Shown here: positions 1,601-43,982 of the stretch, in pieces
How the letters are laid out: every line of letters starts with the position of its first letter
How positions within the stretch are numbered: position 1 is the first letter of the stretch
DNA from: Candidatus Heimdallarchaeota archaeon
Lineage (GTDB): Archaea; Asgardarchaeota; Heimdallarchaeia; Heimdallarchaeales; Heimdallarchaeaceae
DNA length: 64,000 nt
NCBI GenBank assembly: GCA_030603365.1
Contig: JAUVXV010000003.1
Span: 96,001-160,000 of the forward strand
Reading direction: 5' to 3'
Made by a program: the position numbers and the translations under genes
Notes under the pieces: model-generated
Told to the model about the DNA's origin: nothing
The model's input: only the letters and a program-made list of their open reading frames with translations
The model's database searches: none

Positions 1601-4600
1601 ATGACTAGAAATAACAACAAGATTTTTGGACTAATACTTATAATTTTATGTTTTAATACAGTGACCCATCAAGAGATTCTAAACACAGAATCAACTAACT
1701 CTGATGTTGAAAACCTATTGAATGATCCTCCTTATACTCCAAGTTTTCCAGGCTATGTAGACAAAGCTGAAAATCCTGATGATAGTTCACTTATAACAAA
1801 TACCGAAATCGAGGGAGAGTTTCAAACTTTAGCATTTTTCCCTGGTGGAACAGGTAAAATTTATGGGGAATCTCGAGTAGGTGAGACCCTGATCAATGAT
1901 CCAGCAGGTGAGGATCCATATGATAGAAGAAATATTTTTGAATGGGTTACCTACGACGATATCAAAGATGATGGAACATTAAATAAAGAGATGTACTGGA
2001 GAGCTCTGAGTGATGAACCTCTTACTTGGCCGAATTCTACAGATTGGTTCTACATGAGAGAGAGAAATTCTCCACATGAACCTTCCAAAATTTATAGTCC
2101 AGTTTTCACAGAGGACTATGAAATCACAGGAAGAGTCTACTGGTTATCTTGGTTTGAATCAAATGACGATCCTCCTTTTTCAGAAGCAATAAACATTGGT
2201 TATCGTCAGAGTCTTTACCTCTTCAACCCAGCAGATCCTTCCAATCCCACTTTACTTGCTAGTATACAGAGTATATATTATGAACCTAACATCTGGGCAG
2301 GTCAAAGAACACACTTTGCAGATTTAGTTGGAACTACACTAATTCCTGCTGGTTATAGATTAAGATGGGATATTGAAATACGGTTCAGTTTAGTTCCTTC
2401 AGCAGGATCTTTTCTCCAGTATACTGGTTACCTACATACTGGTGGTGGTTCAACAACATGGACAATCGATGATCCTGATCCAATTTATGATAGCACATAT
2501 ACAATTAATAATGTGACAAGGATGTCAGGAATTCAACTTAGAATGCGTTCTAAAGGATATCCTACCATAAATGTGTTAGGAGCGACTGACAATGCTGTTT
2601 ATCAGGTTCTTCAGAATATGACTATCGATGTGACTGATGGTTCGATAAGTTCATATCAGTGGAATGGTGGAAGTTGGACTTCTTTTAGTGATTTAACGAC
2701 CACTTCTCTTCCTGATAATCATGGTTGGAATGAACTTGAAATAAAAGCAAGTGATCCAGTTTTTAACAACACAAAGATTGTTACTTATATCTTTGGATAT
2801 GATAAGTCCTTGATTAATGTTGTACTTAATAGTCCTCTTACGAATGGGTCGACTATAACGGGTGGAACTACCATTGATTTGGATGTTTTCAGTGTAAACC
2901 TAACAGAATACATGTGGGATAATAATGGAACGTGGGTTCTTTTAGAGAGTCCATATAACATAAGCGCTCCAGATTTTGATGGAGAACACATACTAACAGT
3001 TCGAACATCTGATTTCTACACTATTGAATCTGTTGTCTATATTTTTGTTTTCGATTCTACTAATCCAATAATTCAGTTATATAATGTAGTCAATGATACA
3101 ACGCATGCCCCCAACAAAGTAATTGAGTTCAATATTACAGATAATTCTGCTATTCAAACTGCTTACTATAATTGGGATTCAGGAACTGATCAATTATGGA
3201 CACCTGCACAAGGAACCATTTATCAAACTAGCCTACCAATAGGTATTGGATATCATGAACTAGTTACAAAAGCAAATGATACATTCGGTCATTATACTGA
3301 ACAATTCTATCGGTTTTATACAGATGATCAGTTGTTCTTATTAGAACTTGCTGAATTACGTAATGATTCTTATTATCTAGGTGGAGATGATGTTGTTATT
3401 AACGTTCAAAAAAGTAATGGAACCATTAAATATGTCTGGGATAGTGGTACTATCAAAGACGGGAGTATCATTGCATCTCAAATGACACTAACAGGTGTAG
3501 ATGCTATGCCTACTACAGCAGGTCCCCATAATTTAACAATTATAACTTTTGATCTTATAGGGACAATGTATGTTTTTTACTTTAACTTCATTGTAGACCT
3601 TGAAGCTCCAATCATAGATGGTTCAATAGTTTCTCTCTATAACGACACAAGATTTACGACTGATAACACAATGGAATTTATTATAACTGATAATTATACC
3701 CGAACAAACCAACTTATTATCTATATATCAATTGATGGTAAAGCTAACCAAACCCTTAACTCTCCTTTTGAATTACATCTCTATACATTTAACGATGCTA
3801 CTCACTATTTCACAATATATGTCTATGATTTAGCAGGTAATTACGCTATTCAGACCATCTTCTTCCATATTGATACTCTTGCACCTATAATTGAAATAGA
3901 TATCCCAAGTATGATTGTTTTTCAAGAAACGAATTATGTTACAACAGGGGCAGAAGTTATAGTTACTGTAGATGATTTAGATCCTCTTGTTGATACATTT
4001 TACTCTTGGTCAGGAGCTGCTAATTCAAGCTTCTCAGGAAGTATAACTTTAAGTTATGGAGATAGTACAGGTGATCTTCTAATATTCGCAAATGATTCGT
4101 TGGGACATCTTGATTATTATACTATTATTCTAATTATAGACAATACAGCCCCACAATTATTCCTTTCCTCCCCAAATGTGCTTGATGAAATTAATAGATT
4201 TACTGACCTCGAATTCGATATCAATGAAGAGAATATCCAAACAGTTAACTCTATTGGATATTATTGGGATAAATTGCCTTTTTATTATTTCAATACAACA
4301 TACGATAGTTACGATAGCTTTGCACTAAGAATTCCTTCCCTTTTCTTCGATGGACCAGGTGCATATGTAACAGGAAATACTGCAACTCTTGTAATAGAAC
4401 TTTATGACATCCTAGGACATTCTGTATTTGGTAGTTTCGATTTTATTATAGACAGAGATGCTCCTATTCCTGGTTTATACCTGAATGAAAGTGGTGTAAT
4501 AACGCAATTGGAAGAAGGAATCATTTATACAAGTTTAGGCGAAACACCTCTTCTGTATAAGAATGATACAAATGATGACATAGCGGATTTATACTGGATT

Positions 4601-6427
4601 TGGGATGATGACGATGCAACAGGTGATTCATTAGAATTTGGTGGTATTTTAACTGGTGGATATTTGCTAGTAGATATTGTGCCACCAGAAGATGGCCGTC
4701 ATTATCTAAGAGTAGTTTTAACAGATAATACGATAAGTAGTCAACCAAATTTTATAGAATATATTTTCAACATTACTGTAAATGATATTAATATTGATAT
4801 TACTGAACCTAATCCTGAAATGTGGGTTGAGGAAGCAGATTTCTTGTCTTACCATCATAGAATGAACTATACTGATTCATTTAGTTTTACTGTTAATATC
4901 ACAGATACAGTAGATGGTTTAGAAATTCCAGATTTGCAAAATAGAACTATTTCAAGAGTATATAATCTCTTAGCAAGCATTGTTCAACTTGACAATACTA
5001 TCTATGAATGTACTATTGTAGCTACTAATGTTACAAATGGTCTTGAAACACATATAGATTTTGAATTTTACTTAATCGACGGTGGTTCTCAGAAGCTAAG
5101 GTTTTACTTGATTGTAGATAAAAAACTTGGTAGTCTGGAAATACTTGATAAAACAGAACTTACAGTTCAATACGATGAGGATATCGATGTTTACATTGGG
5201 TTAAAAGATCATCTTAGTCAAAATCTTTCAATTATTTATGTTGAAGTCAACTCTCTGATTACTAGTTTTTACAATATAGAAAATACTACAGAATTCTGGT
5301 TCAGATATTCAACACATGGGTTAGAAGAAGGAGAGCATGCAATTACCATTTATGCAGAGAGTACATTTTATTATGCAAAATTGGAAGGTAATTTGACTTT
5401 CGAATTTACAGTCACTCCACTACCCATTTTCATAGATATACAAGTCTCCAATTCTACTGTTTTAGAAGGAACAGAATTTACAATAACTGCAGCATTAACC
5501 TTCCAAAATGGAACAGGATTTGCTGGACAACTTTTACACTTCTTTGTATACTCATATTCGTATGAAACAACAACAGGAGAAGTTTCAGCAGCAATCCCAA
5601 CAAATTATACAACTTATATTATATCAAACAGAACAACCAACATCAATGGTATAGCAACCATAATATTTACTATGTCAACTGAAATTGATTATGTCCTTAT
5701 TGCAGTTACTTATGATGGTGGTGATTTTGTTGACACTTCATACTCTGAATTTGATGAGAAGGTAGTTAAAATTTTTCTACCTGGTTTTCCAAGTTGGTTA
5801 CTTTATACTTTGATTGGTGGAAGTCTATTTGTAATTTTAATAATCTCCCTCATTGTTTATCGAGTAACACGAGGTAAACCATTCGAAGAAGTAATGGAAA
5901 TCGTAACAATTGATGAGATAAAAGAACGATATGAGACTTTATCACCTGGCGTGATTCTAACAATATTTGATCAGAAAAAAGGACCAATACCTCTTATTGC
6001 ATCTCATTCTCTAGACACAACTAGATATCTTGGTCGTATGCAGATTGGTGTTGAAAATTTTATGCTTAAAATAGCTGATCAAGCTTATAGCTCTCTAGGT
6101 TTTGAGGAGCATGATGTTGGAAGAAGAGTAGGTTCGATAATTCTTCCTACAGAGAAGATGATAGGATTTGTTCATGGTGTTCAACTCCCTAATAAGATGG
6201 CTCGAGGTGGTTTTGAAAATCTATCATTAATTGTTCTTGCAGATTCGGAATTTGGTAACTTATTACTAAATTATCAAGAATATATTTATGATGAAATTGA
6301 TGTTATTATTGAAGCTTTGAAGACTAAGAAGCATTTGAAACAAGTTGAAGAATTACTGCGAATAGTTAGACATAAATCAGTTAAGGTCATGCTTACCGCA
6401 GAAAAAGTTGAACAAAAGAAAGGATAA
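1601..6427 (+). CDS. 1608-aa single-pass surface protein: signal peptide, Ig-like repeats, TM helix, cytoplasmic longin/uDENN-like domain
   Basis: GGAGG SD upstream; hydrophobic N-terminus; repeated D-x2-AP / A-x-D-x2-G Ig-like motifs; many sequons; TM near 5790-5860; VILTIFDQKKGP...NKMARGG. Confidence 0.85.
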   Translation: MTRNNNKIFGLILIILCFNTVTHQEILNTESTNSDVENLLNDPPYTPSFPGYVDKAENPDDSSLITNTEIEGEFQTLAFFPGGTGKIYGESRVGETLINDPAGEDPYDRRNIFEWVTYDDIKDDGTLNKEMYWRALSDEPLTWPNSTDWFYMRERNSPHEPSKIYSPVFTEDYEITGRVYWLSWFESNDDPPFSEAINIGYRQSLYLFNPADPSNPTLLASIQSIYYEPNIWAGQRTHFADLVGTTLIPAGYRLRWDIEIRFSLVPSAGSFLQYTGYLHTGGGSTTWTIDDPDPIYDSTYTINNVTRMSGIQLRMRSKGYPTINVLGATDNAVYQVLQNMTIDVTDGSISSYQWNGGSWTSFSDLTTTSLPDNHGWNELEIKASDPVFNNTKIVTYIFGYDKSLINVVLNSPLTNGSTITGGTTIDLDVFSVNLTEYMWDNNGTWVLLESPYNISAPDFDGEHILTVRTSDFYTIESVVYIFVFDSTNPIIQLYNVVNDTTHAPNKVIEFNITDNSAIQTAYYNWDSGTDQLWTPAQGTIYQTSLPIGIGYHELVTKANDTFGHYTEQFYRFYTDDQLFLLELAELRNDSYYLGGDDVVINVQKSNGTIKYVWDSGTIKDGSIIASQMTLTGVDAMPTTAGPHNLTIITFDLIGTMYVFYFNFIVDLEAPIIDGSIVSLYNDTRFTTDNTMEFIITDNYTRTNQLIIYISIDGKANQTLNSPFELHLYTFNDATHYFTIYVYDLAGNYAIQTIFFHIDTLAPIIEIDIPSMIVFQETNYVTTGAEVIVTVDDLDPLVDTFYSWSGAANSSFSGSITLSYGDSTGDLLIFANDSLGHLDYYTIILIIDNTAPQLFLSSPNVLDEINRFTDLEFDINEENIQTVNSIGYYWDKLPFYYFNTTYDSYDSFALRIPSLFFDGPGAYVTGNTATLVIELYDILGHSVFGSFDFIIDRDAPIPGLYLNESGVITQLEEGIIYTSLGETPLLYKNDTNDDIADLYWIWDDDDATGDSLEFGGILTGGYLLVDIVPPEDGRHYLRVVLTDNTISSQPNFIEYIFNITVNDINIDITEPNPEMWVEEADFLSYHHRMNYTDSFSFTVNITDTVDGLEIPDLQNRTISRVYNLLASIVQLDNTIYECTIVATNVTNGLETHIDFEFYLIDGGSQKLRFYLIVDKKLGSLEILDKTELTVQYDEDIDVYIGLKDHLSQNLSIIYVEVNSLITSFYNIENTTEFWFRYSTHGLEEGEHAITIYAESTFYYAKLEGNLTFEFTVTPLPIFIDIQVSNSTVLEGTEFTITAALTFQNGTGFAGQLLHFFVYSYSYETTTGEVSAAIPTNYTTYIISNRTTNINGIATIIFTMSTEIDYVLIAVTYDGGDFVDTSYSEFDEKVVKIFLPGFPSWLLYTLIGGSLFVILIISLIVYRVTRGKPFEEVMEIVTIDEIKERYETLSPGVILTIFDQKKGPIPLIASHSLDTTRYLGRMQIGVENFMLKIADQAYSSLGFEEHDVGRRVGSIILPTEKMIGFVHGVQLPNKMARGGFENLSLIVLADSEFGNLLLNYQEYIYDEIDVIIEALKTKKHLKQVEELLRIVRHKSVKVMLTAEKVEQKKG

Positions 6428-6441: not shown

Positions 6442-6525
6442 ACCGCCTTTATCGATATATTATTATTGTATTTTCCGACAATTATCATAAAGGTTATATT
6501 AACACTAGTAATTAGAGGCTCAATT

Positions 6526-8421
6526 ATGTCCTATCTCTTCGATGAACTATCAGGAAAAGAAGACAGCAAAGCTACAGTTGAAGATAAGATTCTTCTTATG
6601 GGTCTTCAAGCTGCAGGAAAAACTGCTATCAAAGACGTTGTCTTCTTCAACAAACAACCTGAAGAAGTTAACGATTATATGGCTACAGTACACTATCAAA
6701 GACAGTTCATTGATGAAGAACAAAAAAGTATGATTATAGACTCTGGTGGACAAGAAAGTTATTGGAATGAAGCTGTTACTCATTTTAGACATCTTGTTTT
6801 TTCCAATGTTAAGTTGTTAGTATGGATTGTAGATGTTACAAAACCAGAATTATTCGAAGAATCAGAAAGACGATTCAGTTTTACAATACGACAATATAAA
6901 AAAGAGAATCCAGATGGAAGCATCACTGTTTTATGCCACAAAGTTGATTTAGTTACTCCAGAAAAAATGATTGTAATTCATCAACATGTTAGAGATATGT
7001 TCAGTGATCCTCGTTTTGAAGTTGATTTCGAAAATACTAGTATCTACTACTCTGACAGTCTCAAAGAATTATTATTTACTATAATGGATGAAGCTGGTAT
7101 TAACACTAAACGATTCGAACTTATCTCTAATCTTGGTCAGAAAGTTGAAGAGAGTGATGAATTCCAGAGTTATGTTATGGAACATCAGGAAGATCCAAGA
7201 GTCCAACAGTTACGTGATTATTTAAATCCTGAACCTGAAGCTCTACTTCCTTCTTTTGGAAAATTAACTTTGCAATTCGATCTGAAAGAGTATGACATTG
7301 TTGAAATAGTACTTATTGAAAAAGAAACGAATTCTCCCATAGTTGGAGCTTCATCTCAAGCTAATGTAACTGCTGAAAATTCCATGGAATATCTTATTGG
7401 TCTTCATGATTTTAAGAATAAGTTAAAAGAAAATGGAGAAAGTATAGACCCAACAGGGACAGTGTTTACATCATCTACAGGAAAAGTACATGCATTGGTG
7501 TTCAGTCTTGATGTTAATTATCTCCTTATTACTTCTTTCGATCCAATAACTGACGAGAGGAAAGAATTACTTTTTGAGCTAATCCTTAGATTCGCTCAAT
7601 CAACAACTGCAGCTGCAGAAGCTCCTCCTCCTCCTAGTGCTCCAGCTGTTATTGAAGAACCAGTTGCTCAACCCGATCCAATCGCTGAACAACCTGTTGC
7701 ACAACCAGAACCAGTTAAAGCAGCTGAAGAAGTGGCAGTTGCTCAAGAAACAATTGAGGTTCAAGAAGAAATTCCAGTTGAAGTAGCGGCTCCATTAGAA
7801 GTTGAAACTGCTGTCCCGGAAGCAAAACCAATTAAAATTGAAGAGATATTAACTGCTGAAGAAAAAGATGCAGGATTTTTCGAACCAGCTATAGTTGGGG
7901 ATGAATTTCTAGGTAAGGAAGAGCCTGTTACAGTAGTTGAATCTGAACCAATTCCTGCCACAACGGAAGAAGTTACAAAAATCTCTCAACCTGAGGTACA
8001 AGAGAAAGTTGCTGAAGCTGTTTCTGGAGAAAGAGAAGTTAAAATTGAAGACCCAGTTCCAGTTGTAACACCTCCAACACCTCAACCTGCTAAAGTTGTT
8101 GAAGAAGGTGTTCCTGAACCTCCCAAAGTTGAACTTGAACCTGAACCAACTCCTATTACTGAGGAACCTAAGGTAGAACTAATTCCTGTTCTAGCTGAAG
8201 TAGGAACACCCAAACAAGATCCAGTTGAAGCTACAGGAGATGGATTAACGATTAATTTTTCAGCTGATGATATCAAAAACTTTGCAAACTTCTTAGTTCA
8301 GAAAAAAGAAATAATTCTAGATGAATCTATAAATATCGAAGATATTAAAGGACTGTCCAATTTCTTATTTAAAGGGATAACAGAAGATAAAGAAGAACAA
8401 AAAGAAGAAGAATCAGACTAA
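6526..8421 (+). CDS. Rag/Gtr-family small GTPase with roadblock/longin-like domain and long acidic Pro/Glu/Val-rich tail
   Basis: KILLMGLQAAGKT (G1), DSGGQ (G3), HKVD (G4), TSIY (G5). ATG 6526 preceded by GAGG is preferred over the TTG at 6466. Confidence 0.85.
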   Translation: MSYLFDELSGKEDSKATVEDKILLMGLQAAGKTAIKDVVFFNKQPEEVNDYMATVHYQRQFIDEEQKSMIIDSGGQESYWNEAVTHFRHLVFSNVKLLVWIVDVTKPELFEESERRFSFTIRQYKKENPDGSITVLCHKVDLVTPEKMIVIHQHVRDMFSDPRFEVDFENTSIYYSDSLKELLFTIMDEAGINTKRFELISNLGQKVEESDEFQSYVMEHQEDPRVQQLRDYLNPEPEALLPSFGKLTLQFDLKEYDIVEIVLIEKETNSPIVGASSQANVTAENSMEYLIGLHDFKNKLKENGESIDPTGTVFTSSTGKVHALVFSLDVNYLLITSFDPITDERKELLFELILRFAQSTTAAAEAPPPPSAPAVIEEPVAQPDPIAEQPVAQPEPVKAAEEVAVAQETIEVQEEIPVEVAAPLEVETAVPEAKPIKIEEILTAEEKDAGFFEPAIVGDEFLGKEEPVTVVESEPIPATTEEVTKISQPEVQEKVAEAVSGEREVKIEDPVPVVTPPTPQPAKVVEEGVPEPPKVELEPEPTPITEEPKVELIPVLAEVGTPKQDPVEATGDGLTINFSADDIKNFANFLVQKKEIILDESINIEDIKGLSNFLFKGITEDKEEQKEEESD

Positions 8422-8423
8422 GT

Positions 8424-9653
8424 TTAAACTGGTCTGCTGTCATCATATCTTCTATATTCTAAATCTCCATCAAGAAAGATTGGTATTTCTCTTATACCTT
8501 CTACACATTCATGTAATGGGAACATCTCAACTGATGTTGCACCAAATCCTTTTTGGACTTTAATACCTCTTTCAAGATTTTCAGAATTTTCTACTGCAAC
8601 ATCGATTATAGATTTCTGAAGATTACGACCACAAATATCACATTTAAATGAGATTGACTGTTCTACTCTTCTTTCAATTGTTTCACCTTTCTCAAGACCT
8701 TTTTTGAGTAGGTAATCTACTAAAGTGCCTTTCATCTTTATTCTTGCTCTTCCTATTAGTTCATCTGCTTGGAAAAGCTCTTTCATCTCAGCGGCAAGAT
8801 TCATGAAGTATTCTATCTCTTCATCTACTGAATGCTGAGGAGGAAAGACAGTTGTTAGAATAAGATCTTGATCTACTTCTCTCATATATACTCTGTTTTC
8901 ATCAAATGAGAATGTCACATAATCTAATTGTAATGTTGGTGAAAACATCTTGGCAAGATCATTTTTTAGTTTAACAAAATTGAATCCTGTATATCTCTCT
9001 GGTTGAGAATAGAGCATTAGACCTTGAGCAGTTGATAATGAAAGAAAAACCAAATCTTGTTTGCTAAAAGCTTCCTTAATTTTAACAGACTTTGTATCAT
9101 CTTTTGGAAAGACATATGCAATCACTTGTTGCATTGCGTCCCAGATTGTATCTTCAAAGATTGAAGTTGCAAATAGATCAGCATTCGTAAATTTGTCAAT
9201 CTCAAAAATATCTTTTATTGATTGTAAAACAGGTTCTCTTTTATTTGGTGGAACAACATCCATTTTATGTGCAAAAACATAAATTCTTGCTCCCTCTGAT
9301 AGTTGTTTAGCGTTTTCCATTGTCAGATCAAAATAATACTTAGATCTCATAATGTTTGAAGCATCAGAAATATCGATAACGAAAATGAATGCTTTTACAT
9401 CACTGAAGGTTCTTTCTTTGTATTGTTCAAATACTTCATTCAAGTAATTGGATTGCCCTCCAACATCAAATAGGTTAATGGCACTTCCTGCAAGATTGAA
9501 CAGTTTTCTGTTAATACGAACAGTCGCAGGGTTCATTGATGTTGCTTCTGGAGCAAAGCCTTCGAAAACTACTTGACGTATAGAAGTTTTACCAGACTGA
9601 GATAAGCCAAGAACGACAATTTTGGATTCTAATTCATTTCCACCAGTGTACAT
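8424..9653 (-). CDS. Rag/Gtr-family small GTPase with roadblock/longin-like domain and C-terminal Zn-binding domain
   Basis: GLSQSGKT, DVGGQ, HKMD, TSIF; C-terminal CDIC...HEC. Confidence 0.85.
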   Translation of the reverse strand: MYTGGNELESKIVVLGLSQSGKTSIRQVVFEGFAPEATSMNPATVRINRKLFNLAGSAINLFDVGGQSNYLNEVFEQYKERTFSDVKAFIFVIDISDASNIMRSKYYFDLTMENAKQLSEGARIYVFAHKMDVVPPNKREPVLQSIKDIFEIDKFTNADLFATSIFEDTIWDAMQQVIAYVFPKDDTKSVKIKEAFSKQDLVFLSLSTAQGLMLYSQPERYTGFNFVKLKNDLAKMFSPTLQLDYVTFSFDENRVYMREVDQDLILTTVFPPQHSVDEEIEYFMNLAAEMKELFQADELIGRARIKMKGTLVDYLLKKGLEKGETIERRVEQSISFKCDICGRNLQKSIIDVAVENSENLERGIKVQKGFGATSVEMFPLHECVEGIREIPIFLDGDLEYRRYDDSRPV

Positions 9654-11516: not shown

Positions 11517-12512
11517 CTATCTGAATTCAAGTTTGTTTATTTTCAGGAATTCTTCATGAACTAAATGACTCAGTGCAAAAAGAAACTGAGGATAACTCTG
11601 ATTAGGATTCATTTCCTTGTAAGTATCAAGTATAGATTTTTCATGATTAGTCAGATAGAATACTATAAGTTCCTTACAGAGAATTTTGATGTTGGGACTC
11701 AGTTCTTGGAAAATAGTGGCTTGCTCAGTATTAAATCTTCGTAGACCTTCAGAAGATGACTTTGGAAAAGCGATTGTGGAATTAACAAGGAGATCTAACT
11801 CGACAAGATTTCTTTCTGTAGGTTCTTCAACGATATTATCATCTATGAATTCAGCAATTAATTTCAAAACCACTTCATCTAGATATACTAGTGATTCAAG
11901 AGTATCTGCTATATGTTGTATCCATTTTCTAGCTTCAGTAAATGGAAAAGATTTTTGTCCTTGTTTTGAAGCTGTTTTTAGTTGATGTTTCCACTCCTTA
12001 TAGATCCGATCTACTATTTTGGCAGAAATAAAAACTTGTATCTCAATAAACCCTAGAGTTGACTTTATTGTAATTCTTTTTCCTTCTTCTTTTTTGTCAA
12101 AAGTATATTTGCTGTTTCGGATTTTGTCAGTTATCTCCAAACCTGTGATATTTATCCTTTCGAAAGTTTTAGTGTCAAAGACCTTTTCTACCATTGCAAT
12201 TTTTTGGGGAGTAGGAATTCCAAGTGATTTAAAAATATCTTGTTCATCTTCTCCTGTTGAAAAATCTCTATCAGTTTCATAACCATAGTGAGTCGATTTA
12301 ATGTGAACCTGAGATCTTACTGTAAGAAAATTATCAATAAAACACTTTATTGCAGAGAGATTGTTCTGAGCACAGTTATGGACATCAACAAATTCTAGAA
12401 TTGTTGAAAGAGTATCAGATTTCAGTAGCTTAGATGGAATGTTTAGATTCCGTTGCTTTTGACATTTATTGCATTGATATTCTACCTTTTTTATTCCATT
12501 CTGACTACTCAC
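11517..12512 (-). CDS. hypothetical protein with N-terminal CxxC...HxC Zn-binding domain and possible C-terminal winged helix
   Basis: CNKC...DVHNC...FIDNFLTVRS; C-terminal SILDTY...ALSHLVHEEFLKI. Confidence 0.65.
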   Translation of the reverse strand: MSSQNGIKKVEYQCNKCQKQRNLNIPSKLLKSDTLSTILEFVDVHNCAQNNLSAIKCFIDNFLTVRSQVHIKSTHYGYETDRDFSTGEDEQDIFKSLGIPTPQKIAMVEKVFDTKTFERINITGLEITDKIRNSKYTFDKKEEGKRITIKSTLGFIEIQVFISAKIVDRIYKEWKHQLKTASKQGQKSFPFTEARKWIQHIADTLESLVYLDEVVLKLIAEFIDDNIVEEPTERNLVELDLLVNSTIAFPKSSSEGLRRFNTEQATIFQELSPNIKILCKELIVFYLTNHEKSILDTYKEMNPNQSYPQFLFALSHLVHEEFLKINKLEFR

Positions 12513-22443: not shown

Positions 22444-23454
22444 ATGTCTTTCTACGAGTTTCGAAAACGTATTCTAGAAGAGAAGCAAAAAAGAGAAAAG
22501 CAACAAGGTAGACAAGGTGGAACAAATGACTCAAAACAAGAAACTATCATTGGTAAGAATAAGTTCAGTGTAGCATTATTGGGTTTAGAAAGAGCTGGTA
22601 AGACTTCCTTAGTAAAGAAATTATTAAAACAGGAAGATATAGTGGTCAGACCAACTTATGGAGTTAATCTAGAAAATTATCAATATAGGGATCTAAACTT
22701 TACTTGTTTTGATCTTGGAGGTCATCAGCCATTTCGATTAAGTCTGTGGAAAAAATTCATTGAAAGAGCAGACGGGGTGATGTATCTTGTTGATTCAGCT
22801 GACCATGCAAGGTTTGAAGAATCAAAACAAACCTTCTGGCATTATATTAACTTTGCAAAACAAAACAGTCCAGTTTTATTTTTAGCTAATAAGAGCGATT
22901 TACCAAATTCTAAAGAGCTTTCAGAAATCAATGGACATTTCGAATTAGATAAATTTCTAAGAAATCTAAGACCATTTAATATCAAGAAATGTTCAGCCTT
23001 AACTGGACAAGGAGTATACGAAGCTTGGGACTGGATGGTTGATGTGCTCTGCGGTGCACAACAATGGAAAGTTAAGATAGGAGCCGCTGTACTTGCAGAT
23101 GTTGAAGGTAATATCGTATCCGAAGCTATCTTCGGAAAACCTAGTGAACAAGCAGTAATAGCTAACGATTTCAAAAAACTCAAAGAATTGACTCGTCTTT
23201 TTGCCATTGAGTCCAAGGAGAGCATTCAATCTATTAAACTTGAAAGTCTCTTCAAAAAACATGTAAGTCATGTTAAAAGAGGTGCTTATTGCCTCTCAGT
23301 TATGATTGATCCAATCGATCCAGTTACTAGAGCTCAGCAAATTCAATTACGAATTCTAGAGAATTTTAGCAGAAATCCTGTTGAAGTTCAGAAAAATCTA
23401 AATGAAGTATTTGAAAGCAAGTTTCCATTAGAAGTAGAAGGAGGACGTCGTTAA
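22444..23454 (+). CDS. Arf/Sar-like small GTPase with C-terminal longin/roadblock-like domain
   Basis: GLERAGKT, PTYG, DLGGH, NKSD, CSALTG. Confidence 0.9.
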   Translation: MSFYEFRKRILEEKQKREKQQGRQGGTNDSKQETIIGKNKFSVALLGLERAGKTSLVKKLLKQEDIVVRPTYGVNLENYQYRDLNFTCFDLGGHQPFRLSLWKKFIERADGVMYLVDSADHARFEESKQTFWHYINFAKQNSPVLFLANKSDLPNSKELSEINGHFELDKFLRNLRPFNIKKCSALTGQGVYEAWDWMVDVLCGAQQWKVKIGAAVLADVEGNIVSEAIFGKPSEQAVIANDFKKLKELTRLFAIESKESIQSIKLESLFKKHVSHVKRGAYCLSVMIDPIDPVTRAQQIQLRILENFSRNPVEVQKNLNEVFESKFPLEVEGGRR

Positions 23455-43061: not shown

Positions 43062-43982
43062 TTAAGAGAAGAGAGAGTGAATGTGTTCGTCAAGTTGATA
43101 AGGTTCTAAGTCCTTCTTGTGCTTATTGAGATAATCTTGAATGAGAGAAGAAAGCCTTCTAGCCTCAGGTAGAGCTAATTCATCCTTAACTGCTATAGAT
43201 ATAACATGTTCATTTTCTTCTGTGATGAAATAAAAATAAGGTTCAATTTTAATGACTTTAAATTTCTCATGGCCTAATAATTCATTTGTAAATCCGCTTA
43301 GAGCTCTCAAATAACCAACAAACATACTAGGGTCATCAACAACTTGGTTTGGATCAAATAAACTAATCATGTTTCCATTTAAATCAGAGATAAGAACTGC
43401 TTCAGGAGTTATATCTTGCACTTCCATAAGTTGCTTAACTTTTGTAGTAAACCATTTCATTGCGTAATCAATATTTTCGTTTTCTCTGATTGAGGTTTTA
43501 AAGATTTGAAAAGATAAATTAGAATAGTTGGACATTTTTGTCAGGTTCATTGTATTAATAATCTGTTCTAAATTCATGGAATTCTTGAGGTCTGCTTTGT
43601 TAGCTAAGAAAAGAATTACTTTATCTGAATAGTACCCCTTTAACCATTCGTCTACCATAATCCAGAACCACTTAGTAGCTTCATCCATCTGTTCATTATC
43701 AGTTGAATCTAAAACAAAAATTATACCTACAGAGGTCATAGCATAAGATTTCCAGATGGTTGAACGATAAGATTTTTGTCCTGATATATCAAATATATTA
43801 AAGGTCAAATCCCCTATTTTTATTTGTTCAAAATTCACACCTACTGAAGGTTTTGGTCTAGTAAACTTCTCAACTTTAAACCAATTGACTAGAGTAGTTT
43901 TTCCAACATATGGTAAACCTATAATGGTAATCGGAATACCTTTCTTCTTTAACCTAAGTAAATCGTCCATTCCTTCTCTCAA
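43062..43982 (-). CDS. Arf/Sar-like small GTPase with C-terminal longin/roadblock-like domain
   Basis: GLPYVGKT, PSVG, DISGQ, NKAD, TSI; GGAGG SD. Confidence 0.9.
   Translation of the reverse strand: MREGMDDLLRLKKKGIPITIIGLPYVGKTTLVNWFKVEKFTRPKPSVGVNFEQIKIGDLTFNIFDISGQKSYRSTIWKSYAMTSVGIIFVLDSTDNEQMDEATKWFWIMVDEWLKGYYSDKVILFLANKADLKNSMNLEQIINTMNLTKMSNYSNLSFQIFKTSIRENENIDYAMKWFTTKVKQLMEVQDITPEAVLISDLNGNMISLFDPNQVVDDPSMFVGYLRALSGFTNELLGHEKFKVIKIEPYFYFITEENEHVISIAVKDELALPEARRLSSLIQDYLNKHKKDLEPYQLDEHIHSLFS

Follow-up and report, generated by a model that had tools for sequence, protein, structure and literature searches.

A convergent pair of Rag-like GTPases linked to surface proteins with folliculin-type longin tails in Heimdallarchaeaceae

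Two Rag-like GTPases encoded tail to tail

In a 64,000-nucleotide stretch of a Heimdallarchaeaceae genome (33% G+C; G000:C13:96001-160000, hereafter the window), two convergent genes, here called A and B, encode Rag-like GTPases. Nutrient signalling in eukaryotes has at its core the Rags and their longin GTPase-activating proteins (GAPs), folliculin (FLCN) and GATOR1. We propose, with a probability of about 0.6, that A and B are old, Heimdallarchaeia-specific Rag/Gtr paralogues within a conserved receptor-longin signalling module, and that they duplicated independently of RagA and RagC. The gene order of this module is a 243-amino-acid (aa) Ras-like GTPase, one or two giant surface proteins, A and then the convergent B. 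The two GTPase genes and their junction are placed as follows.

6526-8421, + strand: Rag-like GTPase A, 631 aa (Pfam Gtr1_RagA, E 5e-26)
8424-9653, − strand: Rag-like GTPase B, 409 aa (Pfam Gtr1_RagA, E 9e-36)
8419-8426: tail-to-tail junction, with the TAA stop of A at 8419-8421, 2 bp (gt), and the TAA stop of B at 8424-8426 (TTA on the + strand)

Against Pfam PF04670 Gtr1_RagA, for which the curated cut-off is 22 bits, the two proteins reach 91.9 bits (A) and 123.8 bits (B), which bears out an earlier sequence-only reading of the window that had called both genes Rag/Gtr-family GTPases. The same reading had placed their stop codons 2 bp apart, tail to tail, and this is what we find. The best sequence matches of both proteins in the PDB are RagA/Gtr1. 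We place the start of A at the ATG at 6526 because homologues align from that codon; a TTG at 6466 was also considered as the start and was ruled out, as all homologues align from the ATG. Judged by their sequences, A and B each have an intact G domain with G1 to G5 present. The motifs of A are GLQAAGKT (6601-6624), DSGGQ (6739-6753), HKVD (6937-6948) and TSIY (7036-7047), and those of B are GLSQSGKT (9585-9608), DVGGQ (9453-9467), HKMD (9258-9269) and TSIF (9156-9167), so that the DxGGQ, HKVD/TSIY and HKMD/TSIF signatures noted earlier are all present at the expected places.

A and B are conserved as neighbours

Across 83 searched genomes of the class, A and B occur together in 28, while 50 have neither and 5 have one of the two alone, in most cases at a contig end. 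In 12 loci drawn from two families, A and B converge and are separated by 0-72 bp, and the tail-to-tail layout is kept over 40-60% sequence divergence. A giant gene stands together with A and B in all 12 loci, and in the one locus that is rearranged (L009) these three genes are still linked. Because the convergent synteny is conserved and the genes co-occur in 28 genomes, A and B likely share a function as partners.

The layout also bears on the 3' ends of the two transcripts. Downstream of B the first T5 run lies at 8403-8399, within the coding end of A, and the first T5 run downstream of A lies at 8550, within B and about 130 nt in. Since the stop codons are 2 bp apart and the first T5 runs fall inside the opposite gene, it is plausible that the A and B mRNAs overlap at their 3' ends, as the sequence would allow.

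The linked giant surface proteins end in folliculin-type longin tails

Two giant genes precede A on the same strand, and each is predicted from a hydrophobicity scan to encode a protein with a single transmembrane (TM) segment.

3-1586, + strand: 3' part of giant single-pass surface protein, paralogue 1, with its cytoplasmic longin tail at 1026-1586; the full gene (G000:C13:92826-97586, 1586 aa) starts ahead of the window
1601-6427, + strand: giant single-pass surface protein, paralogue 2, 1608 aa, with an N-terminal signal/anchor and one TM helix at about 5795-5869
5858-6427, + strand: cytoplasmic FLCN/SMCR8-type longin tail of paralogue 2, AlphaFold2 (AF2) predicted local distance difference test score (pLDDT) 90.8

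The ectodomains of the giant proteins are 30-55% identical between genomes, and the 190-aa cytoplasmic tails have a mean column identity of 70%; within the window the tails of paralogues 1 and 2 are 60% identical. In the AF2 model the tail has the topology b-b-a-b-b-b-a-a, with strand 1 at residues 31-38 and strand 2 at 42-50. Tail residue G42 is invariant, and at least 90% of sequences have P43; the two form a GP motif directly ahead of strand 2. Three arginines (R89, R90 and R116) are invariant. Structural comparison with VIA-align gave the highest similarity to a Lokiarchaeal longin (Z 12.9), followed by the longin of Lst4 (Z 11.9), C9orf72-SMCR8 (Z 11.6), folliculin (Z 11.2-11.3), NPRL proteins (Z 9.9) and ordinary longins (Z at most 9.6); a Foldseek match to MglB was weak (E 0.018). 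At the sequence level, a weak Pfam Folliculin match falls on the tail of paralogue 1, weak matches to this Pfam family cover the R116 region in five tails, and a search of the tail profile against PDB sequences gave no match. The model thus identifies the tail as a longin of the FLCN/SMCR8 type with a GP motif.

A GP motif combined with an arginine finger is the mark of the GAP longins FLCN, NPRL2, SMCR8 and C9orf72 (PMC12290439). The same mark was found in a class of Heimdall longins in that 2025 survey, which left open the GTPases that they serve (PMC12290439), and according to Liu et al. the FLCN-like operon that they describe has a Rab-like, not a Rag, GTPase. When this genome was scanned with a hidden Markov model (HMM) of the tail, only four proteins were found to carry it. 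Two are those beside A and B, and the other two are receptors on contig 11 (G000:C11:140198-145509 and G000:C11:60154-65286), each of which adjoins a small Rag-like GTPase (180-198 aa) that has no roadblock domain and belongs to the same clade as A and B. All four tail proteins of the genome therefore adjoin a GTPase of the clade formed by A, B and the small Rag-likes. In eukaryotes, FLCN and GATOR1 act on Rags. That every tail protein in the genome adjoins a Rag-family GTPase, and that the linkage is kept across two families, points to Rag-like GTPases as the partners of GP-motif Heimdall longins. Our literature search found no publication describing a linkage of receptor, longin and Rag.

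Domain architecture of A and B

Beyond the G domain the two proteins differ in their make-up.

9111-9653, − strand: B G domain, residues 1-181
8772-9098, − strand: B roadblock domain, residues 186-294, a-b-b-a-b-b-b-a (AF2)
8427-8654, − strand: B CCHC zinc-type module, with C338, C341, H381 and C383
6526-7080, + strand: A G domain
7081-7701, + strand: A conserved second domain, presumed roadblock
7702-8235, + strand: A variable Pro/Glu/Val/Ala-rich linker, about 180 aa
8236-8421, + strand: A conserved C-terminal motif region

An AF2 model of B based on 18 members of its family has a pLDDT of 77. Foldseek matched this model to RagA (E 1e-17), and VIA-align superposed B residues 7-295 on the whole of RagA with Z 25.3 (282 of 298 residues, root mean square deviation 2.9). 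The Z scores were 24.7-24.9 against Gtr1, 22.2-22.7 against RagC and 21.9 (264 residues) against the Lokiarchaeal Rag-like 8yl2, so that in structure B resembles RagA more than RagC, with a difference of about 2.5 Z units. After the roadblock domain the model continues with two helices and then a small beta module at residues 334-394. In the B family, C338, C341, H381 and C383 are invariant within the last 75 residues, as is the LEYR...SRP end, a conservation pattern that identifies this region as a zinc-type module; it has no counterpart in eukaryotic Rags. Three divergent B orthologues (P0065, P0067 and P0068; 38-40% identity) have lost the DxxGQ of G3, which reads for example NVGEE or falls in a gap, and retain the P-loop, HKxD, the roadblock region and the CCHC module; these may be GTPase-dead partners.

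In the alignment of the A family a conserved core of about 390 residues is followed by the variable linker and then by the short conserved C-terminal motif. The N-terminus M-S-Y-L (6526-6537) is invariant in all 12 members of the A family, and MSYL or MNYL also begins the small Rag-like paralogues and a 309-aa protein of a sister family; this sequence could be a conserved signal or membrane element at the N-terminus. Residues 186-392 of A had no match in PDB or Pfam sequence searches. By hhalign, the second domain of A did not align significantly with the roadblock of B, only the G domains aligned when whole A and whole B profiles were compared, and neither second domain, not even that of B, aligned significantly with eukaryotic RagA or Gtr2 profiles. 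Because the same methods also miss the modelled roadblock of B, the silence of sequence searches on residues 186-392 is uninformative. A language-model look-up with the second domain of A alone returned only Gtr1_RagA clusters, with a score of 0.8, which we treat as a lead and not as evidence. The sequence-only reading had given both proteins a roadblock/longin-like domain; for B this stands, as its model superposes on the C-terminal domain of RagA/Gtr1, and for A, whose second domain is probably a roadblock, we infer the same.

Maximum-likelihood trees place A and B in a Heimdall-only clade

Eukaryotic Rags were reached with the B-family profile, with a full HMMER scan from a RagA-type seed and with a Gtr2-seeded search; word-index searches with B reached none. 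In a maximum-likelihood (ML) tree of G domains (91 sequences), A, B, three small paralogues from the same genome and two Rag-likes of the sister family form one archaeal clade (support 72/99), which adjoins the RagA-type (55/61), with the Gtr2-type outside. A full-length ML tree (70 sequences) also has a Heimdall-only clade that holds A and B (100/99), within which B pairs with the 309-aa protein of the sister family (95/89). Unrooted, the full-length tree is split (97/79) into the RagA-type with the Heimdall A/B clade on one side and the Gtr2-type with other Asgard Rag-likes on the other; if this split is real, the RagA/RagC division would be pre-eukaryotic, with A and B both on the RagA side. 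A 430-aa Rag-like from the same genome (G000:C1:478465-479757) falls on the Gtr2-type side, where its placement is unsure and branches are long.

The A family and the B family are each monophyletic on a long stem, and both are common to two archaeal families, which argues that the duplication is old. The sequence-only reading had named a recent lineage-specific duplication as an outcome that would count against it: the grouping is indeed lineage-specific, in a Heimdall-only clade, and a recent origin is ruled out, as the monophyletic families on their long stems predate the split of the two archaeal families. That this duplication was independent of the one separating RagA from RagC in eukaryotes is part of the explanation that we favour.

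Alternative explanations

Several of the results weighed here speak against the reading that we favour. The earlier assignment of A as RagC/D-like and B as RagA/B-like would make A an archaeal orthologue of RagC/D/Gtr2 and B one of RagA/B/Gtr1, and would make the Rag heterodimer and its subunit types pre-eukaryotic. The majority motifs fit this: in HMM alignments G4 is HKVD in 10 of 12 A-family members (HKAD and HKSD once each) and G5 is [TS]SIY in 11 of 12, as in the TS[IV]Y of the fungal Gtr2-type, and G4 in the B family is HKMD in 53 of 68 (HKID 10, HKLD 2, HKAD 2, HKTD 1), as in the RagA-type. The G4 residue is, however, variable within every group. Among 152 eukaryotic RagA-type representatives it is HKMD in 102, HKID in 11 and NKMD in 7, with HKSD, HKTD, HKVD and HKLD found too, and 121 fungal Gtr2-type proteins have HKA[ED]. 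Since it varies within the archaeal families and the eukaryotic RagA-type alike, this residue is a majority state and not a defining one, and the likeness of HKVD and HKMD to RagC and RagA is best read from these alignments as a majority-state coincidence. In G3, all 12 A-family members have DSGGQ, in line with DCGGQ in the RagA-type and unlike DCPG[NDT] in the fungal Gtr2-type (DFPG in Coemansia Gtr2), so that A lacks the Gtr2-type motif; the B family has D[VI]GGQ in G3 and TSIF or TSIY, never the RagA-type TSIW, in G5. Profile scores favour RagA/Gtr1 for both families: B scores 105 bits against RagA/Gtr1 versus 62 against RagC/Gtr2, and A scores 62 against Gtr1, 56 against RagA, 44 against RagC and 21-43 against Gtr2, being relatively less RagA-biased than B. 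A phmmer search of the PDB with the 61-aa G4-G5 segment of A gave no match. Trees constrained to join A with Gtr2 are 18-22 log-likelihood units worse, and one joining B with the RagA-type is 22 units worse, yet approximately unbiased (AU) tests leave both standing (p 0.0745 and 0.109 for A, p 0.0595 for B), and in these trees the Gtr2-type sample is fungal only and the branches are long. Together, the G4 census, DSGGQ, the profile scores and the ML trees with their Heimdall-only clade leave A and B as RagC/D and RagA/B orthologues unsupported and disfavoured, and we consider this scenario improbable.

A and B might instead be unpaired, each acting on the receptor tails by itself or as a homo-oligomer, with their adjacency reflecting shared regulation only. 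Going by the titles of their PDB entries, one of the solved Lokiarchaeal Rag-likes is homotetrameric (8yl2) and another monomeric (8zla, 9m28), so Asgard Rag-likes need not heterodimerise. The two contig 11 receptors each stand beside a single small Rag-like without a roadblock, which presumably works unpaired, and because these roadblock-less paralogues also adjoin receptors, the link between GTPase and tail needs no A-B dimer. To this may be added that the roadblock regions of A and B have no detectable sequence similarity. Set against this scenario are the near-perfect co-occurrence of A and B, the persistence of their tail-to-tail layout through the divergence of the families, the superposition of the B roadblock on the dimerising domain of RagA/Gtr1, and an Asgard precedent: in MK-D1, AF2 predicts that the products of a Rag-like gene pair heterodimerise via their roadblocks (Tran et al. 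2024, PMC10933270). On balance we regard unpaired action as rather unlikely. That the adjacency is incidental and the two proteins functionally unrelated seems to us very improbable. Their convergent orientation does rule out a shared transcript, and we found nothing further in its favour; synteny in the 12 loci of two families, the linkage kept in L009 after rearrangement and the 28-genome co-occurrence already contradict it.

The proposed action of the tails also has points against it. Longin domains are more often guanine nucleotide exchange factors (GEFs) or platforms than GAPs. In FLCN the arginine finger is located in a similar "ARG" loop just ahead of a strand. A tail arginine is a candidate equivalent of the FLCN R164 finger, and GAP activity is putative.

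A proposed mechanism

If A and B are module partners as we favour, they would pair through their roadblock domains, as Gtr1 and Gtr2 do, and the pair would dock on one or more of the membrane-anchored longin tails. A tail could then set the nucleotide state of A and B, most simply as an arginine-finger GAP, so that the state of the GTPases would reflect what the receptor encounters with its extracellular part. The CCHC module of B and the C-terminal motif of A, the latter carried on a flexible linker, would be likely output or adaptor sites that bind downstream partners.

Other GTPases and open reading frames of the locus and the class

A third GTPase of the module is the Ras-like protein of about 243 aa, whose gene precedes the giant genes in eight loci. 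Here it lies just upstream of the window (G000:C13:92080-92811), and it recurs at L002:1744-2463, L006:2836-3567, L008:4595-5314 and five more loci. Its match to Pfam Ras is weak, and it has a GDGxxGKTHT P-loop, PGQKG in G3 and an unusual THLD in G4, which is normally NKxD. Further features of the window and of the sister family are listed here.

11517-12512, − strand: open reading frame (ORF) of 331 aa, with an N-terminal CxxC...HxC...[FI][IL]D pattern like the C-terminal module of B
L012:5742-9548 (−), L013:5775-9480 (+), L014:5839-9572 (−) and L015:5593-9323 (−): four-gene operon of the sister family

In the whole genome the CxxC...HxC...[FI][IL]D pattern is found only in B and in the ORF at 11517-12512. 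By hhalign the B module and this ORF align with E 0.0015 and 17% probability, with the four ligands in register, and BLASTP of the B zinc module against the ORF gave no significant match. Synteny of the ORF is confined to the same genus (L003), and its sequence makes it a possible partner whose membership of the module is uncertain.

Two more GTPase-like ORFs in the window, at 22444-23454 (+) and 43062-43982 (−), encode proteins of 306-336 aa with weak Gtr1_RagA-type matches, and the second branched with distant outgroup GTPases in trees; from their sequences both may be other G-domain fusions. The sister family, which belongs to the same class and has larger genomes, lacks the A/B module. The four genes of its operon, all on one strand, encode a Rag-like (about 335 aa), a degenerate GTPase-like protein (about 313-339 aa), a third protein (about 265 aa) and a second Rag-like (about 309 aa). 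The third protein has a GP-like TDMGPFPLL near its start, and despite this motif hhalign gave no significant match between it and the tails; nor was the B profile significantly similar to the degenerate GTPase-like protein by hhalign.

Comparison with known systems

A and B share with the eukaryotic Rag heterodimer their Gtr1_RagA G domains, HKxD in G4, the encoding of two paralogues together and the absence of a C-terminal lipidation cysteine from either protein, and B shares the succession of G domain and roadblock, superposing on RagA/Gtr1 with Z 24-25. They differ in that both fall into one Heimdall-only clade and not one with each eukaryotic subunit type, that A lacks the Gtr2-type DxPG and has in addition the linker and C-terminal motif, that B has the CCHC module, and that at the A/B locus we saw neither Ragulator nor a TOR or lysosome context.

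The pair from MK-D1, "Ca. Prometheoarchaeum syntrophicum" (PMC10933270), likewise consists of neighbouring Asgard genes for Rag-like GTPases. Its two genes share an operon in a Lokiarchaeon, whereas A and B are convergent, belong to Heimdallarchaeaceae, carry extra C-terminal modules and are linked to receptors with FLCN-type tails. LokiRagO (8yl2) and LokiRagM (8zla, 9m28) have the two-domain fold that B has, and there are sequence matches as well; they differ in their homotetrameric and monomeric states and in scoring 54-73 bits, compared with 83-105 bits to RagA. A literature search on 8YL2, 8ZLA, 9M28, LokiRagO and LokiRagM found no relevant paper.

The tails, which carry invariant arginines, have the longin fold and GP motif in common with FLCN-FNIP (Lst7-Lst4), NPRL2-NPRL3 of GATOR1, C9orf72-SMCR8 and the longins of PMC12290439, and among eukaryotic structures it is these GAP longins that match them best. 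Unlike the FLCN/GATOR1-type GAP longins, the tail here forms the cytoplasmic end of a surface protein about 1600 aa long, and it lacks a DENN domain. MglA-MglB is likewise a small GTPase regulated by a partner of the roadblock/longin superfamily, although MglA has no fused roadblock domain.

Published work already covers Asgard Rag-like GTPases, fusions of these with roadblock domains, and one pair predicted to heterodimerise (Tran 2024). New here are the A/B pair with its extra modules and convergent layout, and its fixed link to receptor-borne folliculin-type longins. The mirror of RagA/RagC that the G4 motifs of A and B seemed to offer does not hold up, the archaeal pair having probably arisen from its own duplication, and the lesson is that single-residue G-motif signatures do not tell RagA-type from RagC-type orthologues. 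If A and B do heterodimerise, they would provide a parallel to the obligate Rag dimer, or an ancestor-like case of it. More speculatively, and as a possibility that we hold to be doubtful, Rags and folliculin-type longins may be a working Heimdall pair on surface receptors, in which case the lysosomal Rag-FLCN/GATOR axis of eukaryotes would descend from a receptor switch at the plasma membrane.

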